Below are positions 1 to 24,993 of a stretch of DNA of 64,000 nucleotides, in pieces. The stretch spans positions 4,133-68,132 of IMG/VR virus record IMGVR_UViG_3300042463_000409. One strand, 5' to 3'. Positions within the stretch are counted from its first letter, which is position 1, and every line of letters starts with the position of its first letter. The translations under genes were made by a program, and so were the position numbers. Below the pieces are notes generated by a model. It searched no databases. It was not told where the DNA came from and saw only the letters and a program-made list of their open reading frames with translations. The DNA is from a virus.

Positions 1-1
1 A

Positions 2-1795: not shown

Positions 1796-1796
1796 T

Positions 1797-2159: not shown

Positions 2160-2164
2160 ATTTT

Positions 2165-2485: not shown

Positions 2486-2488
2486 TAT

Positions 2489-2629
2489 ATGGCTAACGCA
2501 CAGAAAAAGAAAAAACCAATGAGAAGCAGAAGGTCTGGTTTAAAGACTTCTGCAATTATAAAACACAATCAACAAATAATAAATAACATATGGACAGCAA
2601 ACAGCAATCAGGTTTTAAAGACCTGTTAA
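2489..2629 (+). CDS. Small basic protein (46 aa)
   Basis: Translated by hand: MANAQKKKKPMRSRRSGLKTSAIIKHNQQ...; fills the intergenic gap. Confidence 0.4.
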   Translation: MANAQKKKKPMRSRRSGLKTSAIIKHNQQIINNIWTANSNQVLKTC

Positions 2630-4025: not shown

Positions 4026-4028
4026 TAT

Positions 4029-5964: not shown

Positions 5965-5969
5965 ATTTG
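5962..5969 (+). promoter_or_regulatory. Bacteroidota sigma-A -7 element (lysis operon)
   Basis: TAAATTTG fits TAnnTTTG, 17 nt upstream of the ATG at 5987. Confidence 0.55.
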
Positions 5970-5986
5970 CGTTAAATTATAAAACA

Positions 5987-6598
5987 ATGAAGAAAACATT
6001 ACAAGTAGTTGGTCTTTTTATGATAGTTGCCTTGGCGGTATACATCAAGTTAAATGGTGTTCATAACCCATTTTCTCCTACAATCAAATATGTAAATGGT
6101 AAACCATACGAGGTTATTAAACATGATATCGATACTACATATATCGACAAAGTAACCATCAAGAAGGTAAAAGGGGAAGATATCTACCACGATACTACCA
6201 TTTATGTAACTATTCCTGTAGATAAGCCTATTGATACAATGGCTATCTTGATGCATTACTATGCAAAGAATGTATACAAGGATACTTTACTACTCAATGA
6301 CTCACTAGGATACGTAGCTATTACAGATACAATCAGCAAGAATGCTATTGTTAGCAGATTATACAACGCTAAAGTAAAAGAGCGTACTATCAAAGAGACA
6401 ACTATTGTTAAGGAGTTACCTAAAATGCAGATATTCTGGGGTTTGGGTGCTTCGTTTGATAAGGTTAACTTTGTGAATAACGTACAAGCCAATTTTCTCA
6501 TAAAAACGAAGTGTGATAAAATTTACGGCGTAGGGGCAGGTGTGGACATAAACAAAGTTCCATTTGTAAATGCGTCATTATATTGGAAAATTAAATAA
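5987..6598 (+). CDS. Lysis-cassette membrane protein (spanin candidate)
   Basis: N-terminal TM, DT-rich extended region, C-terminal beta hairpin ending YWKIK; adjacent to holin and endolysin. Confidence 0.45.
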   Translation: MKKTLQVVGLFMIVALAVYIKLNGVHNPFSPTIKYVNGKPYEVIKHDIDTTYIDKVTIKKVKGEDIYHDTTIYVTIPVDKPIDTMAILMHYYAKNVYKDTLLLNDSLGYVAITDTISKNAIVSRLYNAKVKERTIKETTIVKELPKMQIFWGLGASFDKVNFVNNVQANFLIKTKCDKIYGVGAGVDINKVPFVNASLYWKIK

Positions 6599-6599
6599 T

Positions 6600-6848
6600 A
6601 TGAAAGAGTTTTTACTTAGAATGTTCAGTGACAAGTCTGACGTAAATCAAAAGGCTGTACTAGGTTTTGTATCATTTGTATTAATGGTTCTATATGCACT
6701 AGCAGACATCGTTACAGGTGTGGCAGGTGTTACATTTGTTATCGAACCTATTGTATTCAATGGCTTAATGTATACCGCAATGACTATGTGTGGCATTACA
6801 GGAGTAGAAGCTGTATTTGGTAACAAAAACTTAAAAGAAAAGCAGTAA
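6600..6848 (+). CDS. Putative holin
   Basis: Two TM helices and charged C-terminus; stop overlaps the endolysin start; start set at MKEFLLRMF. Confidence 0.55.
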   Translation: MKEFLLRMFSDKSDVNQKAVLGFVSFVLMVLYALADIVTGVAGVTFVIEPIVFNGLMYTAMTMCGITGVEAVFGNKNLKEKQ

Positions 6849-7444
6849 TGAAACTAGATAAGCTAAAAGGTCATATACCAGATTCTGTAATAGCTCAGAT
6901 TCCATTAGTTTCTGAAAAATTCGGTGTGAATACTCCGTTGCGTTTGGCTCATTTTTTAGCTCAAACAGGACATGAATCAGGTGGATTCAGGGCAACTGCT
7001 GAAAACCTAAACTATAGCGCAAAGGGATTGACTAATATATTCAAGAAGTATTTTACTCCAATAAGTGCCAAAGAGTTTGAACGTAAGCCTGAAAAGATTG
7101 CTAATATAGTTTACGCAAACAGAATGGGCAACGGGAATCAAGCGAGTGGAGATGGCTTTAAATTTAGAGGGAGAGGTTATATTCAATTGACAGGCAGAAG
7201 CAACTATACAGCATTCGACAAATCTGTTGATGATGATATAATTGCTAACCCTGATTTAGTTTCTACAAAATACCCTCTTCTTTCTGCTGCATGGTTTTGG
7301 TCTAAGAATGGTTTAAATGCTATATCTGACCAAGGCGCATCGGAAGATGTAGTAACAAAGATTACAAAGAGAGTTAATGGCGGTGTCATAGGACTTCCTG
7401 ATAGAATTAAACACTTCAAAGAGTATCATCAATTATTATCATGA
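6848..7444 (+). CDS. Endolysin, glycoside hydrolase family 19
   Basis: AHFLAQTGHESGG, FRGRGYIQLTGRSNY, SAAWFW, TKRVNGG motifs. Confidence 0.92.
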   Translation: MKLDKLKGHIPDSVIAQIPLVSEKFGVNTPLRLAHFLAQTGHESGGFRATAENLNYSAKGLTNIFKKYFTPISAKEFERKPEKIANIVYANRMGNGNQASGDGFKFRGRGYIQLTGRSNYTAFDKSVDDDIIANPDLVSTKYPLLSAAWFWSKNGLNAISDQGASEDVVTKITKRVNGGVIGLPDRIKHFKEYHQLLS

Positions 7445-7587
7445 TACCTAGAGCAATATTCATAAGTATGATACTATTAATCGTTTATCTTTTTATATCT
7501 TTAGTTATATCAGATAGAAAAGTAAGTAGACAAGAAAAAGAAATTAAAGTTCTTAAAGAAGAGCTTGAATTATATAAAAAATGGTAA
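7441..7587 (+). CDS. Small TM + coiled-coil protein (48 aa)
   Basis: MIPRAIFISMILLIVYLFISLVISDRKVSRQEKEIKVLKEELELYKKW; ATGA overlap with the endolysin stop. Confidence 0.5.
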   Translation: MIPRAIFISMILLIVYLFISLVISDRKVSRQEKEIKVLKEELELYKKW

Positions 7588-7615
7588 ATAACAAACCCGA
7601 ACAACCTGGTAACAT

Positions 7616-7897
7616 ATGCCTAGAAACAATAACGCTGGAAAGCATCCGAGCTATCTGCGTCTCAACTGGAGCCCAAGCTCAATAAAGAGAAAAAGGGAAT
7701 ACGATAAAAAGTATAGCTCTTCTGAAAAACAGAAGAAGTATCGAGTTGAACTAAACAGAGCAAACAGGGAGGCTGGTACTTATGGTAACGGCGACAATAA
7801 AGATATGAGCCATACTAAGTCAGGTAAACTTAAAATGGAACACCAGAGGTTAAATAGAGCTAGGAACGGGCGTAACGGTAAATCAACCAAGAAGTAA
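7616..7897 (+). CDS. Basic HNH-like protein
   Basis: GNGDNKDMSH...HQRLNRARN resembles minimal phage HNH nucleases. Confidence 0.5.
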   Translation: MPRNNNAGKHPSYLRLNWSPSSIKRKREYDKKYSSSEKQKKYRVELNRANREAGTYGNGDNKDMSHTKSGKLKMEHQRLNRARNGRNGKSTKK

Positions 7898-7922
7898 TAT
7901 ATTTGCAAAAATTAACAGATAA

Positions 7923-8138
7923 ATGGAGCATCCTTTAAAGATTTCGGATTCGGTAGGAATACCAAGTACGCTAGGGGCAATCACTTTAAATATTATGCAG
8001 ATGCTTAATTTATCAAACATTAATATGGTATTAACTTTAGTGATTTCACTATTGTCAATAACATATCTGTTAATCAACATCTCTATCAAGTATAGAGAAC
8101 TAAAGAAGGTAAAGAAGGGAAAAAATAACCCTTCTTAG
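7923..8138 (+). CDS. Small membrane protein (holin-like)
   Basis: Hydrophobic core with basic C-tail; preceded by TATATTTG at 7898-7905. Confidence 0.5.
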   Translation: MEHPLKISDSVGIPSTLGAITLNIMQMLNLSNINMVLTLVISLLSITYLLINISIKYRELKKVKKGKNNPS

Positions 8139-8302
8139 CCTTTTTTTCTGTAGTCTACTTTCCCAACATCATACTTGTATACAATAGCTCTAATTTTAGA
8201 TTGCAACAACTGAAGATAATCTTCTATTCTCTTTTTCTCTGCCATTAAAACTTCTAAGTCTTTTGAATCATTAACAGATTCATCCATTTTGATTATCTTC
8301 AT
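8135..8302 (-). CDS. Small coiled-coil protein (55 aa)
   Basis: MKIIKMDESVNDSKDLEVLMAEKKRIEDYLQLLQSKIRAIV...; minus-strand TATATTTG at 8360-8367 upstream. Confidence 0.5.
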   Translation of the reverse strand: MKIIKMDESVNDSKDLEVLMAEKKRIEDYLQLLQSKIRAIVYKYDVGKVDYRKKG

Positions 8303-8510
8303 AGTATCTAATTATTATTATTATGATTATTTCAGTGCATCCGATTCCAGAAACAGATCCAAATATACAATTTCAGGTGATATATTTATGCACTAAAATG
8401 GACCCCATTGATTTACTGAGCACTTCATATATAAATGATTTTATATCTGATGATGAAGGAGTCGACGGGGGGATTGACGACCCCTTCTTGTTATCATATA
8501 TATACGCTAA

Positions 8511-9551
8511 TTAAAATATGTGGCTGAATCTTGCAATCTGCCCGTGCAGTTTGTGATGCAAGAAACCTTCAACGGCCTTTGGTGCATGCACATATCCATT
8601 TCTGTGATGCCATGAATCAGCTCCTGACGGACTTCTTAAAGCCTCGATAGTAACTCCCATGATATCTTTTGAACGCTTGTGGTGAATGTGATGAATGTAA
8701 AAGTATTTGTGTTTACAAGAAGACCAGTCAGTTCCTGACTCGTGAGCCATAAGCAATGGTAAATCATTTTCTTTTGCTCCGTCTCCGTGTGTAGTACCTA
8801 TAAGGTTGTTATAGTATCTGTAATATTTTCTGTGGTTGATAGAGCAATTAAATTCAACATTCTTATCTCTACTGAACCAAGACTGAATTGTATCAGCTAA
8901 AAAGAAACCATTTGTGTAATCGTGGTTAGAAGGGTCGTACTGCACAAATACATTAGATACTTCTCTAAGTGTTTCAATAATCTCTACATGCAATCTTTTA
9001 GCAATCAAGAAATTATCATACCACATTCCGTCTGTATCTTGCGGAGTTCCAGATGTAGTCTGTCTTTTAGGTGTATCTACATGCAGGATATCGTTTCCGA
9101 TAACGTATAGTATTTGGTCTACATTGAACGCAGAAGCTTTTTCAAGTATACCATACACACCTTGCATAACTCTATCAACAGCTATCTTGTTATTATACTC
9201 GTCATTTGTTTCAAATGCAGAGCATAGTTTACCGATATGTATATCGGCAGGGTCAATAACCAAAAGATGTGCATCTTCGGGTCTGTTAAACGGAGTTCTT
9301 TGAATCTCTAAATACTCAGGAGCATATTCTTTCATTTCTGATATAATAGCGTCCTTGACGTCATTATAACTTACTTGAGCTCCCTTGACATTAATTGAGA
9401 AGTGTTCTCCTTTGAACCAATAGTGCTTAACATCTTGTACAGGAATGCCTTGTTTTTCGCATTCCTCAGAAAGCGCTTCGTGTTGAGACCTGATATCTTT
9501 TAAGATATCGAATTCGGCCTCTGTAATCCGAGGTCTGATTTCTTTTTTCAT
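8511..9551 (-). CDS. Calcineurin-like metallophosphoesterase
   Basis: DIHIG, GNDILH, SNHD, THGD, HHIHH metal-binding motifs. Confidence 0.8.
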   Translation of the reverse strand: MKKEIRPRITEAEFDILKDIRSQHEALSEECEKQGIPVQDVKHYWFKGEHFSINVKGAQVSYNDVKDAIISEMKEYAPEYLEIQRTPFNRPEDAHLLVIDPADIHIGKLCSAFETNDEYNNKIAVDRVMQGVYGILEKASAFNVDQILYVIGNDILHVDTPKRQTTSGTPQDTDGMWYDNFLIAKRLHVEIIETLREVSNVFVQYDPSNHDYTNGFFLADTIQSWFSRDKNVEFNCSINHRKYYRYYNNLIGTTHGDGAKENDLPLLMAHESGTDWSSCKHKYFYIHHIHHKRSKDIMGVTIEALRSPSGADSWHHRNGYVHAPKAVEGFLHHKLHGQIARFSHIF

Positions 9552-9577
9552 GTATTTATGGGTTAGGTTTTGCTAAA

Positions 9578-9946
9578 CTACAACTTTTTAATAAACTCAA
9601 CAACTTCTCTGCACTCTTTTTGATTTTTTGGTAAAAATATATGAGGCTGTTCTCCGAATTCACTATAAAGCCTGTACTTTAAGAGCTTCCACTTTAGCTT
9701 ATTGTCATTCCTCTGAAACCCTTTGGTGTCAACTATTACAGACTTCCCTTTCTCTGTCAAATCAAAATCAACAGTTAATGTCATTGCTCTAATGGACTTT
9801 CCTTGATACTTAAACGTTGGATGAAGTAAGTATGGAACTTGAAAATCAAATTTAATTTTCTCGCTCATCAATAGTTCATAGAAGAATAACTCTAACCTAG
9901 AGTCAAACTTCAAACCATACTTCTGCACCTTTTTGATTTGCCTCAT
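9578..9946 (-). CDS. PD-(D/E)XK nuclease, DUF1064-like
   Basis: FDSRLE...FQVPY...VDF...VDTKG. Confidence 0.75.
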   Translation of the reverse strand: MRQIKKVQKYGLKFDSRLELFFYELLMSEKIKFDFQVPYLLHPTFKYQGKSIRAMTLTVDFDLTEKGKSVIVDTKGFQRNDNKLKWKLLKYRLYSEFGEQPHIFLPKNQKECREVVEFIKKL

Positions 9947-10047
9947 AAATTAGATAAAGAACAGGTAAGTAAAAGACCCATCATTAGTAAATATAAAAAC
10001 AATAGTACTAAAACGGGATGCCCTTCATTATTATTGTCTTTTTTCAT
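9943..10047 (-). CDS. Small membrane peptide (34 aa)
   Basis: MKKDNNNEGHPVLVLLFLYLLMMGLLLTCSLSNL; ATGA-coupled to the nuclease gene. Confidence 0.4.
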   Translation of the reverse strand: MKKDNNNEGHPVLVLLFLYLLMMGLLLTCSLSNL

Positions 10048-10050
10048 AAA

Positions 10051-10452
10051 TTATATCAAATTTAATTCACTTTTGCTATATGACAATGCAGAACGCAATA
10101 TTTCTATCTTGTAATGGCATTCTTTAATCAATAACTCTGTAATGTTATTGTAAAAGCTACAATCGCCTATCTCGTAAGCTATTAGCATCTTTTTTTCTGT
10201 TGCAGACCTATCGTCATTGTTTAATGTGATAAGCTTAGAGAAAGATAATTTCTCTGTAAGGTATTGGAACTGAGCTTTTGCTGTAATACCTAAAGACATT
10301 ATTGATGTAATTTCAGATAGGTGTTCTACAATAGCCCTAGGGTCGCTACAATCAATCTTTTTTCCTACAACAGCTCTGTATGCTTCATACATTTCTATTG
10401 ACTTTTCAAAAGCAGATTGCAATGATTGGTCTGTAAATACTTGCTTCGCCAT
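10051..10452 (-). CDS. Helical hypothetical protein
   Basis: 133-aa ORF with A-rich leader, in operon. Confidence 0.6.
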   Translation of the reverse strand: MAKQVFTDQSLQSAFEKSIEMYEAYRAVVGKKIDCSDPRAIVEHLSEITSIMSLGITAKAQFQYLTEKLSFSKLITLNNDDRSATEKKMLIAYEIGDCSFYNNITELLIKECHYKIEILRSALSYSKSELNLI

Positions 10453-10456
10453 GGTT

Positions 10457-10693
10457 TTATGGTTTTATTGGTTTAATTCTAAGTGCAAATTCTTTGTCTA
10501 ACTCTTTTGAATAGACTCTCTTCTTTTGTTTTATAGCATTCTTAATAACATTGTGGCCGATGATTAGCTTTTGTTGTGCTAATTTCAATGTCTTGAACTC
10601 AATGGCCTTTTCTCTTCGCTCTTCCAAATCTTCAATAGATAAGTCATAAGCTAAAATTGTAACTCTTGATTCGTCTATAAACTCGTATCCCAT
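10457..10693 (-). CDS. Hypothetical protein (possible small DNA-binding domain)
   Basis: 78-aa ORF packed between neighbours. Confidence 0.55.
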   Translation of the reverse strand: MGYEFIDESRVTILAYDLSIEDLEERREKAIEFKTLKLAQQKLIIGHNVIKNAIKQKKRVYSKELDKEFALRIKPIKP

Positions 10694-10694
10694 T

Positions 10695-12512
10695 TTAAAA
10701 CTTACATTTATGTTTTAGTAATAAATAATCCCTATTAAAAGGAAGCATTCCGTTTTCATCTACAAATTCAACTCCATTATTCATTCTTAATATGCATGGG
10801 TTTCCTTGTGTTGTCGGCTTGCCACCCGTCTCTTTATTTCTAACTTTATCAACAGAAATCTCTGTTACCATCCATTCGTATTGGTCTTTGATTTTCCTAT
10901 GATAAGTCACAAAGTTATCAACCCTATTGTAAAGTGCAGCACCCCCTTCGGTATCTGATGCGTGAGGCATCTTTTGGTTGCCATCTTTATCTCTTTCTCT
11001 TTGAGAATTGGTTGTACTATGTACTGATAAAAATATAGAAGTGTTGTATCTTTTTGTATAGTTGAGCATCTCGCTATATGCCTCGTAGTCGTATATGTAT
11101 TTATTCTTTGCTGCTGTCAACTCCATCTTCAAAGAATTATACGGATCAATAAACAGCCCCTTCAAAGACTTATAGTTCATAAGCACTTTAGAGTGGTCTA
11201 ATATCTCTCCGTATGTGTACATATTATCGGTAGATAGTATAAAGAAGTGCTCATCTACAAACTTTAATGAAGCTGCATGCTCTGAGTCGTTCATACTTGT
11301 AATCTTCTTGCCAACAAAGAACTCCATAATCTTCATCTTAACTGAAGCAGATTGATTCTCTCCTGTGTACAGCATCCAATTCCAATCATAATGCACAGCA
11401 GATAGGAAAATGAGCCACAAATTGACTGTTGTTTTACCAATATGGCTGTGTGCTAGGGACGCATAAAATTCGCCCTCTTTTAGCCTCAGATGGTCATCTA
11501 AATGCTTATACCCAAAAGGCATACCCATAGGTATGAGGCCAGACCTAAACTTATAGATAAAATCATCGTCTTTGGACCTAGAAGAAAGAAAGGACAAGTC
11601 TTCCTCCATAACTCCAATTTCACGTACAGCTTCCCTGTACTCAGATTCAACCTCATGTATAGGCCTGGTCATACCATGACGCAATCCGTCTTCTATGGTT
11701 CTCTTGGCTAGTTGGATGTCGTCTACATCTTTCTTAGAAATCTCGTGAGCAAGAATATCGTAAGCAATATCATATTCTATGTATTTAGTTGCAACATATC
11801 CGCCTAATAATGTAGCTGCCCTAAGTAACGTATGATGCTTTTGTCCATCAGGTGCTAGCCTAATCATTCTAGAGGCTACATCAATTTTTTTATAATCCGT
11901 AAACCCATCTCCCATTTTAACCGAAGATGGCTTTATCTCTTCGTCCTGAACAATATCAAAAAACACACTAGAAGATGTGTTAACGTATATCTCAGGATCA
12001 TAAGATACGTACAATACCCTAGCTATGTTTTTAGCTGTTGGGTCTAAGCCAGGTATCTTTTCTAGTAGAGCTTTGTAGTGCTGCGTATGCTTATTTCCGT
12101 CTCCAATCTTAACTAGACCATGAAGACCTCTACCACTAGAAGAAATCCATAAGGCATATATAAATGGATTATTAATTAATTCTTGCTTTGCCTCATTAAC
12201 ATCTTCGATATCATCAATATCTATTGGCACAAATCCGCTATGCTTTGTCAGAGATTTGTCATCTCTGTAAGACACATACTCTGTTCCGTTGTCTCTTGTT
12301 TTAGTTATAGGCTTATTAAATTCTCCTGAAAATAAAACGCATGGCAGTCCTGACTTTAACTCTCTAATTTTGTTCTCGTCTTTACATTGCCTTATCTCGC
12401 TTACTTTCTCTTTGTATTTGCCTGTTTCTATTCCTTTCAATACCGAACCCAATTCGACAAAGTGGGGCTCATGTATTGTAGTAATGTTTCTAAATAAGGT
12501 TACTCTCTGCAT
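10695..12512 (-). CDS. Primase-helicase (VirE/BT4734-like N-domain + DnaB-like SF4 helicase)
   Basis: KSGLPCVLFSG, DIDD, SSSGRGLHG primase-like motifs; HSHIGKTT Walker A; FIDPYN; KVRNKETGG. Confidence 0.82.
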   Translation of the reverse strand: MQRVTLFRNITTIHEPHFVELGSVLKGIETGKYKEKVSEIRQCKDENKIRELKSGLPCVLFSGEFNKPITKTRDNGTEYVSYRDDKSLTKHSGFVPIDIDDIEDVNEAKQELINNPFIYALWISSSGRGLHGLVKIGDGNKHTQHYKALLEKIPGLDPTAKNIARVLYVSYDPEIYVNTSSSVFFDIVQDEEIKPSSVKMGDGFTDYKKIDVASRMIRLAPDGQKHHTLLRAATLLGGYVATKYIEYDIAYDILAHEISKKDVDDIQLAKRTIEDGLRHGMTRPIHEVESEYREAVREIGVMEEDLSFLSSRSKDDDFIYKFRSGLIPMGMPFGYKHLDDHLRLKEGEFYASLAHSHIGKTTVNLWLIFLSAVHYDWNWMLYTGENQSASVKMKIMEFFVGKKITSMNDSEHAASLKFVDEHFFILSTDNMYTYGEILDHSKVLMNYKSLKGLFIDPYNSLKMELTAAKNKYIYDYEAYSEMLNYTKRYNTSIFLSVHSTTNSQRERDKDGNQKMPHASDTEGGAALYNRVDNFVTYHRKIKDQYEWMVTEISVDKVRNKETGGKPTTQGNPCILRMNNGVEFVDENGMLPFNRDYLLLKHKCKF

Positions 12513-12525
12513 ACATATTGATTTT

Positions 12526-12591
12526 GACCTTGTGCTAGATTCGAACTAACTCCTTCATATAGATGTGCTAACCATTAAACACCAACAAGGT
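12526..12591 (-). ncRNA. tRNA-like RNA with truncated anticodon arm
   Basis: ACCTTGT/ACAAGGT 7-bp acceptor; GTGT/GCAC D-stem with TGG loop; GTTAG-TTCGAAT-CTAGC T-arm; only 14 nt between D- and T-arms. Confidence 0.7.
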
Positions 12592-12679
12592 ACTTAAAGC
12601 GCAATTAGTGTTCCCATTAAATAACTCGTTGATTAATAATAATTTTTTAGTTTATTTACACTAATTGAACTTAAGTTAG

Positions 12680-12949
12680 TTAGAATGGAAGGTCGTCAGT
12701 CTTACTAAAAGACTTTGGAGCTGCAGGTTGAACTGCATCTTTGTTAGGCTTCCATGTATCCAATACAGCAAATGCATTGTATCCGTACTGGTCAGGTGTC
12801 TTTTTATCTTTGATTTCGATATTTACGTAGCCTCTGTCATTTTGATGACTCTTAAGTTCTTCAATAAACTTTTCTACGTTGATACTAATCTTAGTACCAT
12901 ACTGAGTTTTCTTGCATCGTAATGCATTGATGTAAACAGTGTCTGACAT
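12680..12949 (-). CDS. Single-stranded DNA-binding protein (small phage type)
   Basis: Beta-rich 89 aa with C-terminal DDLPF tail, in the replication/recombination block. Confidence 0.65.
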   Translation of the reverse strand: MSDTVYINALRCKKTQYGTKISINVEKFIEELKSHQNDRGYVNIEIKDKKTPDQYGYNAFAVLDTWKPNKDAVQPAAPKSFSKTDDLPF

Positions 12950-12979
12950 TTTTATGGTTTTATTGGTTAAAAATTCGGT

Positions 12980-13010
12980 AAAAAAACCCCCGATGTAGAA
13001 ACACCAGGGG
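12980..13010 (-). terminator. Intrinsic terminator with TGT-TTCT-ACA apex
   Basis: Minus strand CCCCTGGTGT-TTCT-ACATCGGGGG followed by T7. Confidence 0.75.
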
Positions 13011-13039
13011 ATTGTCGCTTGTATGTATGAGAATCAATA

Positions 13040-13312
13040 TTAAACATTTTCAAGCTTTCCCCATAGAAGCTTTTTCTTTGGGTTCTTGGTAGCTGTAATC
13101 GCTACATCAAATCCATATTCAGAGAGGATGTCAATGACAGCCCCCATGGATACGGTTCTTGGCTTCCCGTCTTTATCCATATACTTTCCAGAGTAGTTAA
13201 CGAAAAACCAATAGTTCTTTGACTTGTCTTTCGAGTAAATCTCATCTAGTATTTTGGCGATTTGAGGGTAGGTTTTGGTTAGTTTGGTTTTGGTTATGCC
13301 CTTCGCGTTCAT
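13040..13312 (-). CDS. Hypothetical protein
   Basis: 90-aa ORF followed by a terminator. Confidence 0.55.
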   Translation of the reverse strand: MNAKGITKTKLTKTYPQIAKILDEIYSKDKSKNYWFFVNYSGKYMDKDGKPRTVSMGAVIDILSEYGFDVAITATKNPKKKLLWGKLENV

Positions 13313-13316
13313 GGTT

Positions 13317-13682
13317 TTATTGTTTGGAAATCAGGACGACAGATTCTAGTTCACCATCATTGAAGTACGCCATAAACGTATAGAATACTTCGTAAGGTTT
13401 TCCGTAGAATAAAACATCTCCATTATAATAGCTTTTCTTTGTTACTTGGTTTATTTTTCGCATCTCTGCCGAGAATAGCCCGTCTTTATTATCCTTAGCT
13501 ACTAATTCATACTCGAAGTCTTCAAAGTATAAATATCCGTCCATACCAACATGGTAATCTAGGAACTGGCAGTCAAGACTCTTAGTTTGAAACTCAAGGT
13601 CTTTTAGATCTTCAAGTTCTTGCTCGTTCTCAATAGGCAGGAACTTTAGGTCTATTTTCAAGGTGTCGTATCTGCTCGACAT
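13317..13682 (-). CDS. Phage hypothetical protein
   Basis: 121 aa, FQTKSLDC motif; upstream TATATTCG promoter-like variant at 13707-13714. Confidence 0.6.
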   Translation of the reverse strand: MSSRYDTLKIDLKFLPIENEQELEDLKDLEFQTKSLDCQFLDYHVGMDGYLYFEDFEYELVAKDNKDGLFSAEMRKINQVTKKSYYNGDVLFYGKPYEVFYTFMAYFNDGELESVVLISKQ

Positions 13683-13737
13683 AGGCTTATTTCAAATAGT
13701 GTATTGCGAATATACAATGTTTTTCACAAAAACAAAA

Positions 13738-14496
13738 TTATTTTACCCAATATGGCAAAGATATTTCAAAGTCTCCACCTGAATGGAACTCGTATCCCAT
13801 ATCCCAAAGGTTGTTTTGCATACACGAATTAAATAGCATTGCTAATTCAGATACCGTCTTTTTACCTAGGTCAATATACTCTTGACTAGCTTCTGCAACA
13901 ACAATATTGTATGGAGATTTAGTTTCAACGATTAGGTATTTTATAGGTTTATTAGTAACCATATTGTATATGGCAGCTTGTATGTGGTAGCCTCGGTCAT
14001 AGAAATTATTGATGATAGTTTTTGGATGTGCGTCCGAAGCTGTCTTTACTTCTAAAACATATTTATCAGATTCTCCATCTATAAATCCTCTGAATGGAAG
14101 TCCGTGCATCTCTGCCCTGAATTCATTTTCAAATATATTACAATCTGATACCAACTTTTTAAAATGGTCTTGCATCATTATCTTATCTACAAGTCTATTG
14201 GCATCTTCAAACTCAGACTCTTGCACAACGGTCTTACCTTCTGCTTCACTCATAAACTTTGCGTAAGTAGCTTTACCTTCTGTTGTTCTTCTGTCTACGT
14301 TTGGCATCACGGCAAACTGAGAATTAAATTCTTTGGGCTGTAGTAGTAAGCAGTGCAGCATGCTGCCAAATATCATTTCTTTACTAGGCTCTTTGTCTCC
14401 ATTTAGGTATGCAATGTAGTGTGCAGGACTCTTAGCAAACTCTTTTAGTGAAGAGTAGCTTAATGGCCTTTGTTGTAACGTTTCTAATGTTATCAT
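13738..14496 (-). CDS. RecE/exonuclease VIII-like PD-(D/E)XK exonuclease (DUF3799-like)
   Basis: LSYSSLK, FGSMLH, RGFID, EVKT, YHIQAAIY. Confidence 0.85.
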   Translation of the reverse strand: MITLETLQQRPLSYSSLKEFAKSPAHYIAYLNGDKEPSKEMIFGSMLHCLLLQPKEFNSQFAVMPNVDRRTTEGKATYAKFMSEAEGKTVVQESEFEDANRLVDKIMMQDHFKKLVSDCNIFENEFRAEMHGLPFRGFIDGESDKYVLEVKTASDAHPKTIINNFYDRGYHIQAAIYNMVTNKPIKYLIVETKSPYNIVVAEASQEYIDLGKKTVSELAMLFNSCMQNNLWDMGYEFHSGGDFEISLPYWVK

Positions 14497-14497
14497 A

Positions 14498-14770
14498 TTA
14501 TTCTGTTTCGTCGGTTAATATTACCCTGTATTTGTATGCAGCAACAGGATCGGTTTCATTCAATATATCTAGTGCATATTCGTATCTCATATTAATCATC
14601 TTCTCTACGTTTAAGTCAGAGCTTAACACTTCATACTTTACTTTAAGAGAATCTAATGATGCATTTTTATAAAGAAGCTGGTCTTCTAGTGTTGAGCATT
14701 TATTTGCCTGGTACAATGAAGTCCATAGTAAAGCAATGCAAAATACAAGAAGTAACCTTTGCTTTCCCAT
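14498..14770 (-). CDS. Membrane-anchored coiled-coil protein
   Basis: N-terminal hydrophobic segment then heptad repeats. Confidence 0.5.
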   Translation of the reverse strand: MGKQRLLLVFCIALLWTSLYQANKCSTLEDQLLYKNASLDSLKVKYEVLSSDLNVEKMINMRYEYALDILNETDPVAAYKYRVILTDETE

Positions 14771-14772
14771 GA

Positions 14773-15318
14773 TTATCCATTTTTAATTTTATTTAATTCA
14801 GCTTCAACAGCTTTTGATATGTTATAGAATTGTCTAAGTTTAGCTACATCTAGATTATTTGATTCAGCTCTTTTAACAATAGCACTCCAATCCTTGTGCT
14901 TATCTGTTAGCCATTCTTTCTGAGGAGCCGCTGTATCTCTTGACATAGCCTTCTCTCCATCATCATCTTCGTCTTCAATAACTAGGTTTAATAATCCTGA
15001 TAAGCTATATCTTTTAGCATAAGTTACAGCACTACCATAGTCTTGTGCGGTCTGCTTTTGAACTACGATAGGAAAGTATGATACCATCAATTCTCCTGTC
15101 TCTACATGATATAGATTAGTTTGAACATAAGGAGCTCCGTCTAATACAATAGTTGGTTGTGATATCACTAATCCATTGCGACTTAAGTGAGGGGCTATGT
15201 GTTGCTGAATAGCATCTAATTGCGCATACTTTGATTTAAAGAATGGGTTGTTAGATGACTTTGTAATTGGTTCGCATTGTGATTGAAATAGTGACAATGC
15301 TTTTAATAAATTCTGCAT
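14773..15318 (-). CDS. erf: ERF-family single-strand annealing protein
   Basis: NPFFKSKYA, QDYGSAVTYAKRYSL, EDDDG signature. Confidence 0.9.
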   Translation of the reverse strand: MQNLLKALSLFQSQCEPITKSSNNPFFKSKYAQLDAIQQHIAPHLSRNGLVISQPTIVLDGAPYVQTNLYHVETGELMVSYFPIVVQKQTAQDYGSAVTYAKRYSLSGLLNLVIEDEDDDGEKAMSRDTAAPQKEWLTDKHKDWSAIVKRAESNNLDVAKLRQFYNISKAVEAELNKIKNG

Positions 15319-15337
15319 TTTATTGTTATTTAGTTCG

Positions 15338-15420
15338 TAGTCAGTGTAGGATTCGAACCTACATTTAGGAGACTGATGTATTTAATCTCAGTTTTCGTCT
15401 ACCATAACGACTTCCTGACT
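15338..15420 (-). ncRNA. tRNA-like RNA with aberrant anticodon arm
   Basis: AGTCAG/CTGACT acceptor; GTC/GAC D-stem with TGGTA; ACTGA/TCAGT stem with 11-nt loop; GTAGG-TTCGAAT-CCTAC T-arm. Confidence 0.65.
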
Positions 15421-15581
15421 ATATCGGTTGTTCTGGCACAACCATAAGCCCCTTTGTTTTCTTTATGCGTATGAACAAATGCTGCTACTATAACACACTT
15501 GGCAAGAAAACTATGTCTAACCCAACCGCAAGGCATCGGTACTAGGGCTTTCTAAACTATAGTAGCATTTATTACTTATTG

Positions 15582-15589
15582 CAAAACTA
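15582..15589 (-). promoter_or_regulatory. -7 promoter element upstream of hairpin/tRNA-like/erf
   Basis: Minus strand TAGTTTTG. Confidence 0.5.
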
Positions 15590-15593
15590 CAAA

Positions 15594-15743
15594 CTATTTA
15601 AATAATATTCTAAATAATTTTTTGAATTCTGCTATTATATCGTATATCACACCTGAGTATATTAATCCCCATACCCATACTAAATATGGAATGAAGAATG
15701 TAAATATAAATATCAGTGCTCTCTCTTTTTTATCTTTTACCAT
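15594..15743 (-). CDS. Small membrane protein
   Basis: MVKDKKERALIFIFTFFIPYLVWVWGLIYSG...; start uncertain (track extends it to 15857). Confidence 0.4.
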   Translation of the reverse strand: MVKDKKERALIFIFTFFIPYLVWVWGLIYSGVIYDIIAEFKKLFRILFK

Positions 15744-16077
15744 AACTATATGTATATCAGGTTCTATATCCAAGTAAAAAGTTACCTGAACAGTCCTCCA
15801 CTTTATTTCAACTCGTGGATTCATAGCTCTACTACACACCCGAATATCTAACGGCACATTAGTTTTTTACTTTGTTTACTTGTCGGCAGTTGTCAACCTG
15901 TAAGACATGGCTACCACTTTGTACTAATATGTATATCTCCGCATGTGCAAAAAGTTAAGCACCATAGGTGCTACGAAAAACACACACGTTAAGTGTAAAG
16001 AACAGCAAATTTTTATTTGAACTATCGTTGTATAGAACAAGGCTAAAATGTGTTAAAACCTTACCGAATGGGGTATG

Positions 16078-16183
16078 AAAGAAAAAGCCCACCAAAGTAG
16101 AGATTTGATGGGCATGATTCAAAAAGGTGTTAGCCTTCTAAAAGCACACCCGATAACGTATCTCTACTACCTTATCGGATTTG
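16078..16183 (-). ncRNA. Kissing-loop small RNA / attenuator
   Basis: Two hairpins with complementary 7-nt loops GTAGAGA and TCTCTAC; second hairpin followed by TTTTTCTTT; consensus promoter directly upstream. Confidence 0.65.
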
Positions 16184-16188
16184 CAGTA

Positions 16189-16219
16189 CAAAAATACAAA
16201 TGTTTTTTATACCACCAAA
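16189..16219 (-). promoter_or_regulatory. Full Bacteroidota promoter (-33 TTTG, -7 TATTTTTG)
   Basis: TTTG-19 nt-TATTTTTG on the minus strand. Confidence 0.7.
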
Positions 16220-16226
16220 TATTTTT

Positions 16227-16421
16227 TTAATTTTTATTGTGTTCAGATATAGTTATTGTCAATGTCGCAAACAACAGGCCTAACTGAAAGGCTACAACAG
16301 GGGTTCCGCAGCACTCATATACTCCGTCAGATAAGCTAAACCCCAATAATATTGAACCATCATGTCCATCGATGAATGGGCTGTCAATAACAGCTTGTAC
16401 GTCGTTTTTAAATATTTTCAT
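16227..16421 (-). CDS. Hypothetical protein
   Basis: 64-aa ORF on the early strand. Confidence 0.5.
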   Translation of the reverse strand: MKIFKNDVQAVIDSPFIDGHDGSILLGFSLSDGVYECCGTPVVAFQLGLLFATLTITISEHNKN

Positions 16422-16426
16422 AGTTT

Positions 16427-16483
16427 GTAAAGTTATAGGTTTACTTTTATGTGGTTAAAGTAAAGTTATAGGTTGACTTTTAT
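16427..16483. repeat. Direct repeat of a 24-bp quasi-palindromic box
   Basis: GTAAAGTTATAGGTT(T/G)ACTTTTAT at 16427-16450 and 16460-16483. Confidence 0.7.
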
Positions 16484-16608
16484 TCTTGCCTATTCCTTTC
16501 ATCCTCTTCTATTTTTCTCTTGCTATAATCTATGAGGTATACCCATAGGATAGATACGGGAATAGCAAATAAAAAGGATATTAAGAACCCTTCAAATTGT
16601 ATATTCAT
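16480..16608 (-). CDS. Small membrane peptide (42 aa)
   Basis: MNIQFEGFLISFLFAIPVSILWVYLIDYSKRKIEEDERNRQE; a 28-aa TM ORF (16605-16691) is coupled upstream. Confidence 0.45.
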   Translation of the reverse strand: MNIQFEGFLISFLFAIPVSILWVYLIDYSKRKIEEDERNRQE

Positions 16609-16694
16609 AGTTTCTTTATTTGTTTATATATAGATATACATCCTAGGATAGATACTATTCCTACAAGTATCATAAATAATAATGCTAACATAAT

Positions 16695-16919
16695 TTATAG
16701 TTTTTCTATTTCTTGTTTAACTTCTTTCCACCAATTCTTTTCTATGCAGTTATCGTCTTTGTCAAAGGCAATAGGGTTAGAAGAAATTATTTCGTCTACT
16801 GCTATTAATGCACACTGTACAGCTTTTTTTAATATATATGAGTGCTCAAACCCCATTTTTAGGGTTACTATTGGCTTGTATTTCTTTATTAACTCATCAC
16901 ATTTTTCTTTTGGTGTCAT
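16695..16919 (-). CDS. Phage hypothetical protein
   Basis: MTPKEK...QCALIAVDEII...WKEVKQEIEKL pattern typical of Bacteroidota phage early genes. Confidence 0.65.
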   Translation of the reverse strand: MTPKEKCDELIKKYKPIVTLKMGFEHSYILKKAVQCALIAVDEIISSNPIAFDKDDNCIEKNWWKEVKQEIEKL

Positions 16920-16922
16920 AGG

Positions 16923-17135
16923 TTATTTGTTTTGGTTATAGGTTTGGTTGTAGTATTCTTCTCCTTCTTCTCTATATCCATATACTCCATCTATATTACC
17001 ATAGTAAGCATCTATTATCTGCTCTTTTTCTTTTTCAAGTTTAGATTCTGCTCTTTTTATTATACCATGTACAATAGAGTCATATGATTCAATGCTTTTT
17101 AATTCACTAATCAATTGTTGTAATACTGTTTGCAT
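16923..17135 (-). CDS. Phage hypothetical protein
   Basis: EKEQIIDAY...EYYNQTY; similar to 17585-17824. Confidence 0.65.
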   Translation of the reverse strand: MQTVLQQLISELKSIESYDSIVHGIIKRAESKLEKEKEQIIDAYYGNIDGVYGYREEGEEYYNQTYNQNK

Positions 17136-17138
17136 ATG

Positions 17139-17258
17139 TTATTTTCTAATGTTTATAGTAATGTATCCCCAACTTAACTCTATTAGCCACCATGCATATA
17201 TGTTTATAGACGGTATGAGAGCAAAGTAGAACCTGTTTTTGTGTACTGATACTTTCAT
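17139..17258 (-). CDS. Small hypothetical protein (39 aa)
   Basis: MKVSVHKNRFYFALIPSINIYAWWLIELSWGYITINIRK with an AAAAACC leader; preferred over the tracked 17146-17334 ORF. Confidence 0.45.
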   Translation of the reverse strand: MKVSVHKNRFYFALIPSINIYAWWLIELSWGYITINIRK

Positions 17259-17385
17259 GGTTTTTATATTTATTTACATATAATAATAATATTTGATAAG
17301 GAATTATATCGAATTGCGTATATTTTTTTAACATAAAGTGTCATAAAATGCACATTAATTAGGATTTTGTCACTTATAAAGGACA

Positions 17386-17580
17386 TTATTCTTTTTTAAT
17401 TTCTTTTGCTTTATTCCATATCAACTCTCCGTTATCTCCCCAATAGTAGTCACACTTATTGTTTTTAGTAATTGGTGGATCTAGGAAGTATGATTGCAAG
17501 TAAGATTCATGTGCTGTATACCTATAACAGCCTTCTTTATGTGGGCAACCTTCTCCGCTGCATTTTGTGATATCTGCCAT
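17386..17580 (-). CDS. Small Cys-rich protein
   Basis: MADITKC...CPHKEGCYRY...CDYYW. Confidence 0.65.
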   Translation of the reverse strand: MADITKCSGEGCPHKEGCYRYTAHESYLQSYFLDPPITKNNKCDYYWGDNGELIWNKAKEIKKE

Positions 17581-17584
17581 GTTA

Positions 17585-17824
17585 TTATATTTCGTTGTAT
17601 TTATCGTCGTAATACTCGGTTGCCGTTACGTTCTTCATTCCATCATTTGCAACCTGAAAGCAATTCATTTTTCCAAATCTATAAGCCTCTTCAATTTGAT
17701 TCTTCTCTTTACTCTTGGCTACACTTACTGCTGCGGTTATTAATGTTTGTTTTAATTGGTCATTAACATCATTCATATCGTTGATAATATTTAATTCTTT
17801 TGTCAAGTAGTCTATTGCTGTCAT
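17585..17824 (-). CDS. Phage hypothetical protein
   Basis: MTAIDYL...EKNQIEEAY...EYYDDKY. Confidence 0.6.
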   Translation of the reverse strand: MTAIDYLTKELNIINDMNDVNDQLKQTLITAAVSVAKSKEKNQIEEAYRFGKMNCFQVANDGMKNVTATEYYDDKYNEI

Positions 17825-17829
17825 TGTTT

Positions 17830-18837
17830 TTATATATTTTGTTTAGTAAATAAATCTATCGCCTTGAATATATTGTATGCTACCTGTGGTACAATAGCAT
17901 TCCCGTAAGCCTTTATTGATTCCATTCTCCACTTAGAAAAGGTAATAGAGTCCAATTCTCTGGGAAGCCCATCATCTCCTCCACAAATAGGGGGTTTAGT
18001 TGGGAAGTCTTGGAACTTGGCTCGTATATTTTCGCTATCTCGTCCGTTAAGTTGAATTTGCCTCTGTCTCTCGATGCGTTGCCTCTCGATTCTTGCGCCT
18101 TCGGTGTCGGTAACATACCTAGCTTCGCCATTTGCTTCAATGGGTTCTGCAAGTTGACCCCCTTTGCTTTGTGACGAGCTTTTGCTGCTAGGAATGTCTC
18201 CTCCTTGCGAGCCGTGTTCCAGTCGTATGCCGAAGGTGTCGGTAGTAATGATACTACTTGAGTAGCTAGGTTTGGCATCGTCGTTCCGTTGGGATACTTC
18301 TCCATCCTGTCCTTGAACTTGCCTAGATCCTGTACCTCTTCTCTTGTCGTTGGAGTAAGCAACAAACCAAACTCTGTCCCTTCTGTGCGGGGCGTTGACG
18401 CTTGCAGCTGGAATAATAAACGGTTGTACTTCATATCCTTGGCTTTCCAAGTCAGAGCACACCTCATGGAAGACCAATCCTCCATTCCAACTAACAAGCC
18501 CACGAACGTTTTCGCCCACGACGAATGTTGGTTGGACCTCTTTAATAACTCGTAGCATTTCAGGAAAGAGGTGTCTTTCATCGGCCTTACCAAGACGCTT
18601 TCCTGCGACTGAGTATGGTTGACAGGGGAATCCTCCTGTAAGTACATCAATTGTTCCTCTGTGAATAGAGAAATCTGTTTCGGTAATGTCATTGTATGAT
18701 ATTGATTTTGGAAAATGATATTTTAATACTCGCTGACCAAACGGATTCCATTCGCAGTGGAATACATTATCCCATCCCATCCATTGTGCAGCTACATCAA
18801 ATCCACCTATGCCAGAAAACAAACTAGCGTGATTCAT
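17830..18837 (-). CDS. DNA (cytosine-5) methyltransferase, large/alpha polypeptide
   Basis: Motif I LFSGIGG, IV GGFPCQ, VI GENV, VIII HRRDRVW, X YGNAIVP; motif IX absent from this frame. Confidence 0.9.
   Translation of the reverse strand: MNHASLFSGIGGFDVAAQWMGWDNVFHCEWNPFGQRVLKYHFPKSISYNDITETDFSIHRGTIDVLTGGFPCQPYSVAGKRLGKADERHLFPEMLRVIKEVQPTFVVGENVRGLVSWNGGLVFHEVCSDLESQGYEVQPFIIPAASVNAPHRRDRVWFVAYSNDKRRGTGSRQVQGQDGEVSQRNDDAKPSYSSSIITTDTFGIRLEHGSQGGDIPSSKSSSQSKGGQLAEPIEANGEARYVTDTEGARIERQRIERQRQIQLNGRDSENIRAKFQDFPTKPPICGGDDGLPRELDSITFSKWRMESIKAYGNAIVPQVAYNIFKAIDLFTKQNI
17913..18692 (-). CDS. Nested alternative-frame ORF: C5-MTase small/beta polypeptide (TRD-like repeats + motif IX)
   Basis: 259-aa open frame inside the MTase gene; three LL/ML-(P)TP repeats; QLNPLFVEEMMGFPENWT matches motif IX; true start uncertain. 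Confidence 0.7.
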   Translation of the reverse strand: MTLPKQISLFTEEQLMYLQEDSPVNHTQSQESVLVRPMKDTSFLKCYELLKRSNQHSSWAKTFVGLLVGMEDWSSMRCALTWKAKDMKYNRLLFQLQASTPRTEGTEFGLLLTPTTREEVQDLGKFKDRMEKYPNGTTMPNLATQVVSLLPTPSAYDWNTARKEETFLAAKARHKAKGVNLQNPLKQMAKLGMLPTPKAQESRGNASRDRGKFNLTDEIAKIYEPSSKTSQLNPLFVEEMMGFPENWTLLPFLSGEWNQ

Positions 18838-18838
18838 T

Positions 18839-19117
18839 TTATCCTATTAATTTTTTTAGTGAGTCTGATAATGCCTTTCCGTACCTTAAAAAGCAATACG
18901 CTTCAAACGGTAACTTATCAAGGTCTTTATTGTTATCATATTCCTTCCTCATTTTATCTAGATTGTCGTGATTCGCAAGGAAGTCTATGTACATTGCCTC
19001 TATGATTTCAATAGAATTATTGATTGTAACTAGGGATATGAGGGCTTCGTACTTATCTTCACGTTCTAGTGTCATGATATCACTAACTTCTACTTTTTTG
19101 TCTTTTTTCTTTGCCAT
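18839..19117 (-). CDS. Hypothetical protein
   Basis: 92-aa ORF in operon. Confidence 0.55.
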   Translation of the reverse strand: MAKKKDKKVEVSDIMTLEREDKYEALISLVTINNSIEIIEAMYIDFLANHDNLDKMRKEYDNNKDLDKLPFEAYCFLRYGKALSDSLKKLIG

Positions 19118-19118
19118 G

Positions 19119-19505
19119 TTAATCTTTTACTTTTAATATTAAATATAATAATGCCGAGTAATTACATAAGTCAATTACAGAATCTTGTATAGACTCATTG
19201 TACGCTTCTTTGTTGCTGCTTAATAGTTGACCTAGCCTAGCTACTTTTGTACCTATTAGGTTTAAACAATTAACAGCGTCAGGATTATTTGATGATTGAT
19301 TTACAATCATGCCAGCTAATCTGAAATTAGATAGTATGTCTTCGCCTGCATAGTCGTAACCCTTCTTGCTAAGGATTTCCCTTTGCGAGTCAAACAATGC
19401 TTCTAGCATAGCATCTCTTTCACTAGCTTTCAGTATCGCGTGGTCGTAACTCATCGGAGGTTTCTCTGGTTTCGATGTCTCGAATAGCTTCTTTAATAGG
19501 TTCAT
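19119..19505 (-). CDS. Nucleotide-modification-associated domain protein (DUF1599/Nmad1-like)
   Basis: KKGYDYA...NF...KVARL...ESIQDSVIDLCNY; start set at MNLLKK. Confidence 0.65.
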   Translation of the reverse strand: MNLLKKLFETSKPEKPPMSYDHAILKASERDAMLEALFDSQREILSKKGYDYAGEDILSNFRLAGMIVNQSSNNPDAVNCLNLIGTKVARLGQLLSSNKEAYNESIQDSVIDLCNYSALLYLILKVKD

Positions 19506-19626
19506 TTTGTTTGTTTTTGTATGGACAATGGCGGCATCCACGATTGCAGCAATACCCTCTGTCGAGAAGGAATTGCTCCGTGAATACCACCATTCCATTT
19601 TCTAAATAATAATCTAAGGTTTCCAT
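19423..19626 (-). CDS. DUF5522-like Cys-rich protein
   Basis: DYYLENGMVVFTEQFLLDRGYCCNRGCRHCPY. Confidence 0.75.
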   Translation of the reverse strand: METLDYYLENGMVVFTEQFLLDRGYCCNRGCRHCPYKNKQNEPIKEAIRDIETRETSDELRPRDTES

Positions 19627-20006
19627 TCTAATTCTTCGGTTATCCAATCAGCTTTCTCTCGGAATATGTCGTTAGTCTTATATAAGTCATAATACGTGCT
19701 GATGTTGTGTATAATAGTCGTGTGGTCTCTTGATGACAATTTTTTGCCTATGTCAACTAACGTCCACCCTAATCTAACCTTAACGTTATAACAATATATA
19801 CGCCTAGCGTCTACCAATTCTTGCTTTCTTCGGGTAGCCTTCATCTCGTCAAATGTGATATTTGTAACATTGGTTATTGCATTTACAATATCATCGTGAG
19901 TTACCTTCCCACTTGATAGCCTGATTAACCTAGTGAATCCCTTCGGCAAATCTTTACCTCTTATCCCAGGGTATATGTATGGGTTTATTAATTTCATGCT
20001 GCTCAT
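19614..20006 (-). CDS. Stand-alone DnaA C-terminal (domain IV) HTH protein
   Basis: RRKQELVDARRI...TLVDIGKKLSSRDHTTIIH. Confidence 0.8.
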   Translation of the reverse strand: MSSMKLINPYIYPGIRGKDLPKGFTRLIRLSSGKVTHDDIVNAITNVTNITFDEMKATRRKQELVDARRIYCYNVKVRLGWTLVDIGKKLSSRDHTTIIHNISTYYDLYKTNDIFREKADWITEELEWKP

Positions 20007-20682: not shown

Positions 20683-20702
20683 ATTGATTTTATTGGTTTA
20701 TA

Positions 20703-24982: not shown

Positions 24983-24993
24983 GTTTATTTGAT

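Follow-up and report, generated by a model that had tools for sequence, protein, structure and literature searches.

Two terminators in one phage genome, located 28.5 kb apart and on opposite strands, carry the same loop sequence on differing lower stems, which raises the question of whether this loop does more than close a hairpin. We addressed this in a stretch of 64,000 nucleotides (nt), here called the window, which comprises bases 4133-68132 of the 68,132-bp viral record IMGVR_UViG_3300042463_000409 (IMG/VR), a record with direct terminal repeats. The locus in question covers the 60 bases 12980-13039 on the minus strand, which a first-pass annotation had described as a terminator preceded by an anti-start-like spacer, proposing a family of small RNAs (sRNAs) built from a variable guide and a constant hairpin handle. 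Our analyses support a combined reading to which we assign a probability of roughly 0.55, according to which the terminator module would double as the 3' handle of base-pairing RNAs, with a sister copy at 41506-41567 as the working guide and the copy at 12980-13039, in the following the flagged copy, only terminating transcription.

The flagged copy lies on the minus strand directly behind gene X, which encodes a conserved early protein of 90 amino acids (aa) in the open reading frame (ORF) 13040-13312, with the stop codon at 13040-13042. It consists of a 29-nt spacer (13011-13039), a hairpin (12987-13010) recognised by sequence, terminator scan and folding, and a U7 tail (12980-12986) evident from the sequence and the terminator scan; 30 nt past the T7 follows the ATG of ORF 12680-12949. 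The hairpin, CCCCTGGTGT-TTCT-ACATCGGGGG, forms ten pairs including six G-C and two G.U pairs beneath the loop UUCU with the apex TGTTTCTACA, and its inner 22 nt fold with -12.6 kcal/mol. It is listed first of 20 terminator-like sites in 1-20000, a region in which shuffled sequences yield 10.9 ± 3.6 sites. A G/C-rich stem-loop of ten pairs with an immediate U7 run, placed behind the stop codon of a same-strand gene 29 nt upstream, shows the 60 bases to be an intrinsic terminator at the predicted 3' end of the gene X mRNA. As the spacer begins directly behind the stop codon, a point overlooked in the first-pass annotation, it represents the 3' untranslated region (3'UTR) of gene X.

The shared apex, TGT-TTCT-ACA in the transcribed sense, had been reported for opposite strands and on differing lower stems, and our counts bear this out. 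As a 10-mer it has precisely two occurrences in the window, one on each strand and both in the transcribed sense of a terminator, with 0.20 copies expected and two or more copies in 3 of 100 shuffles; the full record adds no third copy and lacks the backwards control altogether. The second terminator, GGGCCCCTTGT-TTCT-ACAGGGGGC (hairpin 41537-41560, T7 41561-41567, plus strand), is preceded by a 31-nt G/U-rich conserved element (41506-41536), which occupies the space between the hairpin and the stop codon (41503-41505) of a gene of the head module encoding a 306-aa protein. Downstream, a TATATTTG box, 4 nt and the ATG of an adaptor-like gene (41571-41585) follow, an arrangement kept in all relatives read. 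We take this TAnnTTTG-type box to be a Bacteroidota-type -7 box. The 306-aa gene is not called the major capsid gene here, because its product has no PDB sequence match and its PHROG matches are all of unknown function.

Comparison with related phages separates the loop from the stem. Relatives were collected as 26 loci via the primase and, via the 306-aa protein, as 4 and then 10 more loci. At the sister site, each of the 16 distinct intergenic sequences from orthologous loci folds into a hairpin (-14.5 to -19.8 kcal/mol), with the loops TTCT in 12, GTCT in three and CTCT in one, while each of the stem positions 1-5 is occupied by 3-5 pair types and the identity of the 306-aa protein drops to 49% across these relatives; a MAFFT alignment evaluated with RNAalifold misaligned the hairpins and returned no pairs, and the result rests on folding each sequence individually. 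Behind gene X, a terminator with TTCT (nine) or GTCT (three) is present in 12 of 17 orthologous loci; of the other five, four have no terminator by the criteria used and one has a weak unrelated hairpin. In six complete or near-complete genomes TTCT accounts for 8 of 20 tetraloop terminators versus 3 of 268 tetraloops of other hairpins, as determined with a filter which did not capture the window's own second site. An NUCU loop kept while the stems change by compensation shows the loop to be under selection in a subset of terminators.

A simpler account is that these are plain terminators, in which the apex is shared by descent and cassette exchange, the loop suits the host transcription or RNA-decay machinery, and the G/U-rich segments with CAU upstream are a by-product of a former gene-start neighbourhood. 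We consider it possible, although doubtful. The other terminators of the same phages speak against it, as these keep their stems and vary their loops, and the distribution of the apex beyond this lineage bears on it further. We scanned for the apex in the form CCCC-N0-4-apex-N0-4-GGGG; the scans of the viral collection and of bacterial genomes, like those that supplied the clade-1 genomes (the relatives of the window's lineage treated below), give lower bounds, with counts among the matches listed. The viral collection contains at least 119 such stretches, compared to 13 for the apex written backwards and 10 for a one-base UUCG variant. The rarity of the UUCG variant means that stability does not explain the loop, which, together with the lack of enrichment of the bare apex in host genomes described below, contradicts the alternative put forward in the first-pass annotation that the loop is only a favoured terminator tetraloop.

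The apex-bearing viral contigs, which have lengths of 4-287 kb, show no relation to the window. Among 84 matches in 80 loci, 58 have complementary inner stems, 53 of these with a T-rich tail, and the identical 24 nt of the flagged hairpin recur in 10 of the 84; the flagged copy has the same composition, with TGTTTCTACA in a G/C-rich stem and a T-rich tail. Five other phage contigs contain nine apex copies versus one control copy. As expected for ordinary terminators, 47 of 57 distinct viral copies follow an open frame of 60 codons or more read in the same sense (3'UTR type), which favours the plain-terminator account. A TAnnTTTG box lies 25-110 nt upstream in 11 of the 57, ending in eight of these 28-35 nt before the hairpin with an implied RNA of ~55 nt, and seven of the 57 have neither such a frame, nor a box, nor a nearby opposite-strand ORF start.

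The segments upstream of these hairpins have a character of their own. The 30 nt before the viral hairpins have a G+T content of 0.63 versus 0.50, reaching at least 0.7 in 22 of 57 versus 0 of 57 controls, and the word YTCAT, the complement of ATGAR, is present in 25 of 57 segments, compared to 7 and 2 in two sets of 57 control windows. Twenty of these 25 words are located 15-29 nt from the hairpin, a specificity of position which is not expected from plain terminators. The anti-start-like impression noted for the flagged spacer is therefore a trait of the family. We rejected a type I toxin-antitoxin system as well as cis-antisense to a small gene, because the opposite-strand frames starting at this word encode 1-73 aa and are unconserved past the first few codons, so that the YTCAT sites are not gene starts. 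In two groups of unrelated viral contigs the apex terminator is immediately preceded by another hairpin whose loop contains a G/U-rich word, giving a two-hairpin, sRNA-like shape with the words UGGUUUUGUUGGUUU or UUUUGUUGGUUUU (contigs L240, L242, L249, L290, L299 and L237, L251, L280, L293, L297, L306).

Bacterial genomes add a second source of the motif. In bacterial contigs sampled as one genome per species, at least 120 stretches match the apex pattern, and among 80 titles listed ~74 belong to Bacteroidota, most of them to Chitinophagales (Sediminibacterium, Ferruginibacter, Flavisolibacter, Puia, Niabella, Niastella, Terrimonas and others), and six to other phyla. In type-1 loci (45 sequences) a TAAATTTG-like box stands ~70 nt upstream and is followed by a variable part, 30 invariant nt, a hairpin of identical 18 nt and a T-run; type-2 loci (16 sequences) combine another invariant segment of ~30 nt with the same hairpin, and nineteen further host copies carry other segments. 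YTCAT is found upstream in 25 of 35 host copies versus 4 and 2 in controls, mostly within two families. Both host loci checked are situated in ORF-free gaps, and host loci that are free of ORFs and placed behind a conserved promoter-like box fit poorly with plain terminators. The same is true for the missing general use of the apex in host genomes: in four of them the bare 10-mer is not enriched (72 versus 60 in the control) and only 2-3 paralogous loci are present in each, so the apex is not simply the usual terminator loop of the host group. One paralogue of type 1 (L492, G021:C1:815200-815700) keeps the upstream segment and has a different apex (CGTTTTTACG), which indicates that apex and segment are exchangeable.

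Taken together, these comparisons show the apex UGUUUCUACA to be a specific and selected motif which marks, as judged from sequence comparison, a module of upstream segment, hairpin and U-run. The variable guide on a constant hairpin proposed earlier thus finds support at the level of the family, in many viral contigs and Chitinophagales genomes, and not for the flagged copy, a gene X 3'UTR devoid of a promoter box. Rfam gave no match at gathering score for the window and 10 host loci, and a permissive search (both sites and one host locus, to E = 10) returned far-sub-threshold, unrelated terminator-bearing families only. A BLAST search for targets of the type-1 RNA in four host genomes returned the paralogues and a few 15-18-nt matches, of which two were inspected, neither at a gene start. 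In published work on Bacteroidetes terminators, Chitinophagaceae sRNAs and UUCU terminator tetraloops the motif was not found among the matches listed, supplements excluded. The apex module is real and apparently undescribed, with the flagged copy being probably just a terminator. In bacteria the apex pattern falls almost wholly into Chitinophagales. We infer that the phage host is a member of this order, with which TAnnTTTG boxes and the freshwater labels of metatranscriptomes agree weakly.

The sister site provides the candidate guide. A 20-nt exact repeat, not remarked upon previously, connects the two sites (12950-12969 and 41517-41536 read alike on one DNA strand; with up to three mismatches allowed there are 5 matches, 0.09 being expected). 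Its copy at 12950-12969, the minus-strand start-region motif TAACCAATAAAACCATAAAA, is placed just before the ATG of ORF 12680-12949 and constitutes the exact RNA complement of 41517-41536. A target for the sister site does therefore lie in the window, in which the first-pass annotation had found none; the flagged spacer has no target beyond shuffles among the start regions of the phage. A second early start region of the same kind (10453-10474, minus strand), before ORF 10051-10452, is the best predicted partner of the element with -36.9 kcal/mol, followed by the starts of gene X (-31.1 kcal/mol) and of ORF 12680-12949 (-25.8 kcal/mol). None of 200 shuffles is as good (shuffle mean -19.1 kcal/mol), so the sister element shows a seed complementarity beyond chance which the flagged spacer does not show towards phage starts.

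Genome-wide duplex scans, in which each genome was scanned with its own element at gene starts and elsewhere alike, point to gene X in the relatives. Its start is the best non-self partner in G001 (-37.1, next -28.4 kcal/mol), G002 (-34.3, next -27.7), G003 (-34.0, next -27.1) and G007 (-31.6, next -28.9), and a near-tie second in G010. The predicted duplex covers about -17 to +12 of gene X, with the AUG opposite UAU via a G.U pair. Within clade 1 the two partners co-vary, with an average of -33.6 kcal/mol in own pairs and -29.9 kcal/mol in cross pairs; an equally good result is reached by 7 of 5000 random pairings. By eye, matched changes are U/A versus C/G at a variable position and C/G versus U/A in a 5' block, and in G007 the element and the gene X start have each lost 1 nt. 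Such co-variation of element and gene X start would not be expected from plain terminators. Strong element duplexes (-20 kcal/mol or below) are enriched at starts, with 41 of 980 versus 9 of 980 inner coding windows.

The element itself is remarkably well kept: all 16 distinct relatives share identical blocks of it, whereas the adjoining hairpin turns over. It has the G/U-rich composition of the module. A tight element pattern yields 33 matches in the whole viral collection, 26 of them true and always between the stop of the 306-aa gene and the hairpin, and among the 85 matches listed for a looser 16-nt scan, in 80 loci, eight are true and the rest mostly chance or coding. A micro-ORF or a read-through extension in the element was ruled out by 1-3-nt indels and stops among relatives.

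These data are consistent with a model according to which the hairpin, besides terminating, would serve as the common 3' end, or handle, of base-pairing RNAs, with a single-stranded 5' part complementary to translation start regions and an apex probably recognised by some host factor. In this phage the working guide would most likely be 41506-41567. As the 3'UTR of a late and abundant head-module mRNA, it may pair across early start codons and thereby help to shut off the genes concerned late in infection.

Several observations weigh against this combined reading. The co-variation amounts to about three independent lineages, and gene conversion between inverted copies could be an alternative source of it; likewise, the 20-nt identity is on the same DNA strand and possibly a recombination product, as the plain-terminator account would have it. 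In clade 2 (G004, G006, G009, G011, G012, G015-18) the element is equally conserved, yet its duplex with gene X reaches only -15 to -20 kcal/mol, own pairs (-16.7 kcal/mol) are no better than cross pairs (-17.5 kcal/mol), and no consistent start-region partner of the element was found, a conservation without partner which also suits plain terminators. The mean element energies at starts and in inner coding windows are nearly equal across 12 genomes. In the five other phage contigs, none of six guides has a significant non-self start partner within its own partial contig, and three strong targets there are self-complements only.

The flagged spacer adds to this side of the balance. As noted before, its complement looks start-like, containing ATG-AGA, and the spacer holds CTCAT with its CAT 19 nt from the hairpin stem, within the 15-29 nt typical of the family. 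It was tested by RNAduplex as a 29-nt spacer against -30 to +12 windows of 94 crude phage gene calls; the best duplex has -12.6 kcal/mol, and 158 of 200 shuffled spacers are equal or better, which is the result named beforehand as refuting a guide function. The guide idea hence fails its own test with respect to phage genes, and the lack of targets, here and in the five other contigs, is in line with plain terminators. The spacer is G+T-poor (12 of 29, with a family mean of 0.63), has no TAnnTTTG promoter box in the 110 nt upstream, which are coding sequence, and bears no significant likeness to host guide segments of type 1 or type 2. In the comparison of the upstream segments of both sites with type 1 and type 2, 50, 206, 326 and 417 of 500 shuffles are as good. 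Distant relatives retain only a GACATAC-like core and ACAATC of the spacer, most of which is not conserved beyond close relatives. Most likely the flagged copy would only terminate and stabilise the gene X mRNA, while its CUCAU may be inherited family architecture or aimed at a host mRNA.

The remaining alternatives are graded on other sub-questions, so that the weights are not meant to sum to 1. One of them takes the sister element to be a double-stranded DNA site, i.e. an operator or an upstream promoter element for a phage regulator, and the related early-start sites to be repressor sites, which we regard as unlikely. The element is kept at a fixed 32-36 bp from the conserved TATATTTG box in all relatives, contains the direct repeat TGGTT N4 TGGTT and is conserved in clade 2 without an RNA partner, as a DNA site would be, but the early copies are always in sense orientation and 0-12 nt before the ATG, as expected from a feature of mRNA, and a G/U-rich anti-start segment with a hairpin recurs in unrelated contigs and small host loci. 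No DNA-binding protein for such a site was identified. Gene X itself offers some weak helix-turn-helix-like rows in structural comparison (Z 2.5-4.2, under the stated noise level of the tool). It has 16 orthologues with a mean column identity of 61%, and its AlphaFold2 model (predicted local distance difference test, pLDDT, 90; 16-sequence alignment) displays a small helical domain with a short beta element, for which there is no Foldseek match below E 1, no convincing PDB neighbour (best VIA Z 4.2) and no useful Pfam or PHROG family.

We find it rather improbable that, as first proposed, the 29-nt spacer and its hairpin are released as an sRNA pairing with a host mRNA start. The CUCAU at the family-typical distance and the CAU-containing core GACATAC upstream of the orthologous hairpin in G001, G002, G003 and G007 are in its favour; the shuffle result at phage starts, the missing promoter box, the low G+T content, the poor conservation and the unlikeness to host guides all speak against it.

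That the hairpin mimics a CRISPR repeat or guide scaffold, as an RNA decoy or a Cas-like guide, is highly improbable, UUUCUAC presumably resembling part of the Cas12a repeat but standing in no array, only as two lone phage copies on opposite strands and at single host loci, with no CRISPR direct-repeat match at either site up to E = 10. RNA-guided systems do occur in Bacteroidota, although the dCas12f guide RNAs carry the guide 3' of the scaffold and thus in reverse order (PMC13472631).

Returning to the combined reading, an extension of it, which we put forward only tentatively, is that Chitinophagales and their phages share a riboregulatory system, in which a host factor would read the UGUUUCUACA hairpin and direct the G/U-rich segment before it, with its CAU, onto start codons, and phages would supply guides, either embedded in 3'UTRs or as tiny stand-alone RNAs. 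Late-to-early shut-off in this lineage would then proceed by mRNA-mRNA pairing of the late head-module 3'UTR with early genes, and the flagged copy may target a host mRNA.

Known systems resemble the module in part. A generic intrinsic terminator requires no particular apex; the present hairpins are like it in being G/C-rich, followed by a U-run and placed behind a same-sense ORF, and probably also protect the 3' end, and they are unlike it in that the loop and three closing pairs are constant across genes, phages and hosts while the stems vary. In enterobacterial 3'UTR-derived sRNAs, a regulatory segment is located 5' of the mRNA terminator, and terminator and U-tail form the 3' module that binds Hfq. 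The segment just 5' of an mRNA's own terminator is alike, whereas Hfq reads the U-tail and structure and here the loop sequence is constant; to our knowledge Bacteroidota have neither Hfq nor ProQ. P22 sar, P1/P7 c4 and lambda OOP are short phage antisense RNAs over start regions which exert temporal or immunity control. Like the sister element, they are complementary to the ribosome-binding region of a different gene of the phage; they differ in being dedicated transcripts of temperate enterobacterial phages, whereas the candidate here is a late structural 3'UTR of a Bacteroidota phage that would act in trans over 28 kb. We know of almost no exploration of post-transcriptional control in Bacteroidota outside gut Bacteroides.

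The closest architecture is that of FopS/GibS of Bacteroides, multicopy RNAs in which a terminator hairpin follows a single-stranded seed at the 5' end, with which the RNA recognition motif (RRM) protein RbpB is associated, whose seeds pair with translation initiation regions and of which one copy was seen in a phage (PMC11697453). Here, too, a 5' segment precedes a terminator hairpin in multiple copies in Bacteroidota. FopS members, however, have the seed in common (PMC11697453). In the present module the apex is the constant part and the upstream segments differ, and most phage apex copies are, unlike FopS/GibS, 3'UTRs and not separate genes. No Rfam match to FopS/GibS was obtained at either site (up to E = 10) or at the host locus. 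Terminator loops have been described as pairing sites (PMC11979758), and the conserved loop itself could be such a pairing surface.

A constant apex over varied segments, genes, phages and a whole bacterial order would help to find the missing RNA-binding factor, and a search with the apex pattern would aid the cataloguing of regulatory RNAs. If the sister copy acts as proposed, early genes would be under antisense control by the 3'UTR of a phage late mRNA. Otherwise, the apex would still provide a Chitinophagales host-range marker for many uncultured phage contigs and would still reflect strong selection on a terminator loop which thermodynamics does not explain.

The genomic context is that of two opposing blocks. 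The minus-strand block of ~8.5-27.8 kb contains replication-type genes, including a primase/helicase (10695-12512), PD-(D/E)XK and other exonucleases and a DNA methyltransferase, and the plus-strand block contains the terminase, portal and structural proteins and the SU10-adaptor-like protein; we infer from this gene content the names early and late used for them here. Deposited phage genomes gave no match to 10000-16000 of the window (blastn, distant mode). In two freshwater metatranscriptomes, matches to 38.6-41.7 kb are short contigs only (151-459 nt, 90-99% alike), and one of them (41383-41537) stops at the base of the sister hairpin, from which nothing is concluded, as contigs cannot reveal RNA ends.

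Some further observations concern the early start regions and the boxes. Early genes share an A/C-rich start motif, (T/A)AACCAATAAA, 0-12 nt before the ATG, and a motif search located minus-strand copies at 10453-10474, 12950-12969, 13313-13326, 20683-20699, 24983-25002 and 25663-25682. In relatives a variant of it, AACCA-ATG, takes in the start codon, and seven of the eight exact copies of AACCAATRAA in the record are on the early strand. The succession of TAnnTTTG, exactly 4 nt and ATG occurs 3-6 times per genome (window, G000, G001-G004 and G007), a placement that looks like that of mRNAs which are leaderless or nearly so.

The apex with one mismatch is found 17 times in the window (7.6 ± 3.1 expected; 1 of 100 shuffles got to 17). 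Four relatives have an extended apex, TGGTGTTTCTACATCA, without a T-run ~520 nt past their primase gene (L008:2523-2532, L009:6330-6339, L011 and L012:6091-6100), on the minus strand of these loci, opposite to the genes and probably inside coding sequence. A third strong terminator (16087-16113, minus strand; GCCCATCAAA-TCTCTAC-TTTGGTGGGC) is orthologous in relatives and behaves as the opposite of the flagged one, its stem being kept and its loop varying.

Two giant late ORFs lie at 49767-56894 (2375 aa, without a PHROG match at E below 1e-5) and at 59214-63998 (more than 1595 aa, continuing past the window edge). In a 91-kb viral contig (L111:9900-13623), whose match to the 16-nt scan pattern is due to chance, we observed six copies of a coding repeat at a spacing of ~340-1420 nt, with GGT-rich triplet runs which by eye are collagen-like.

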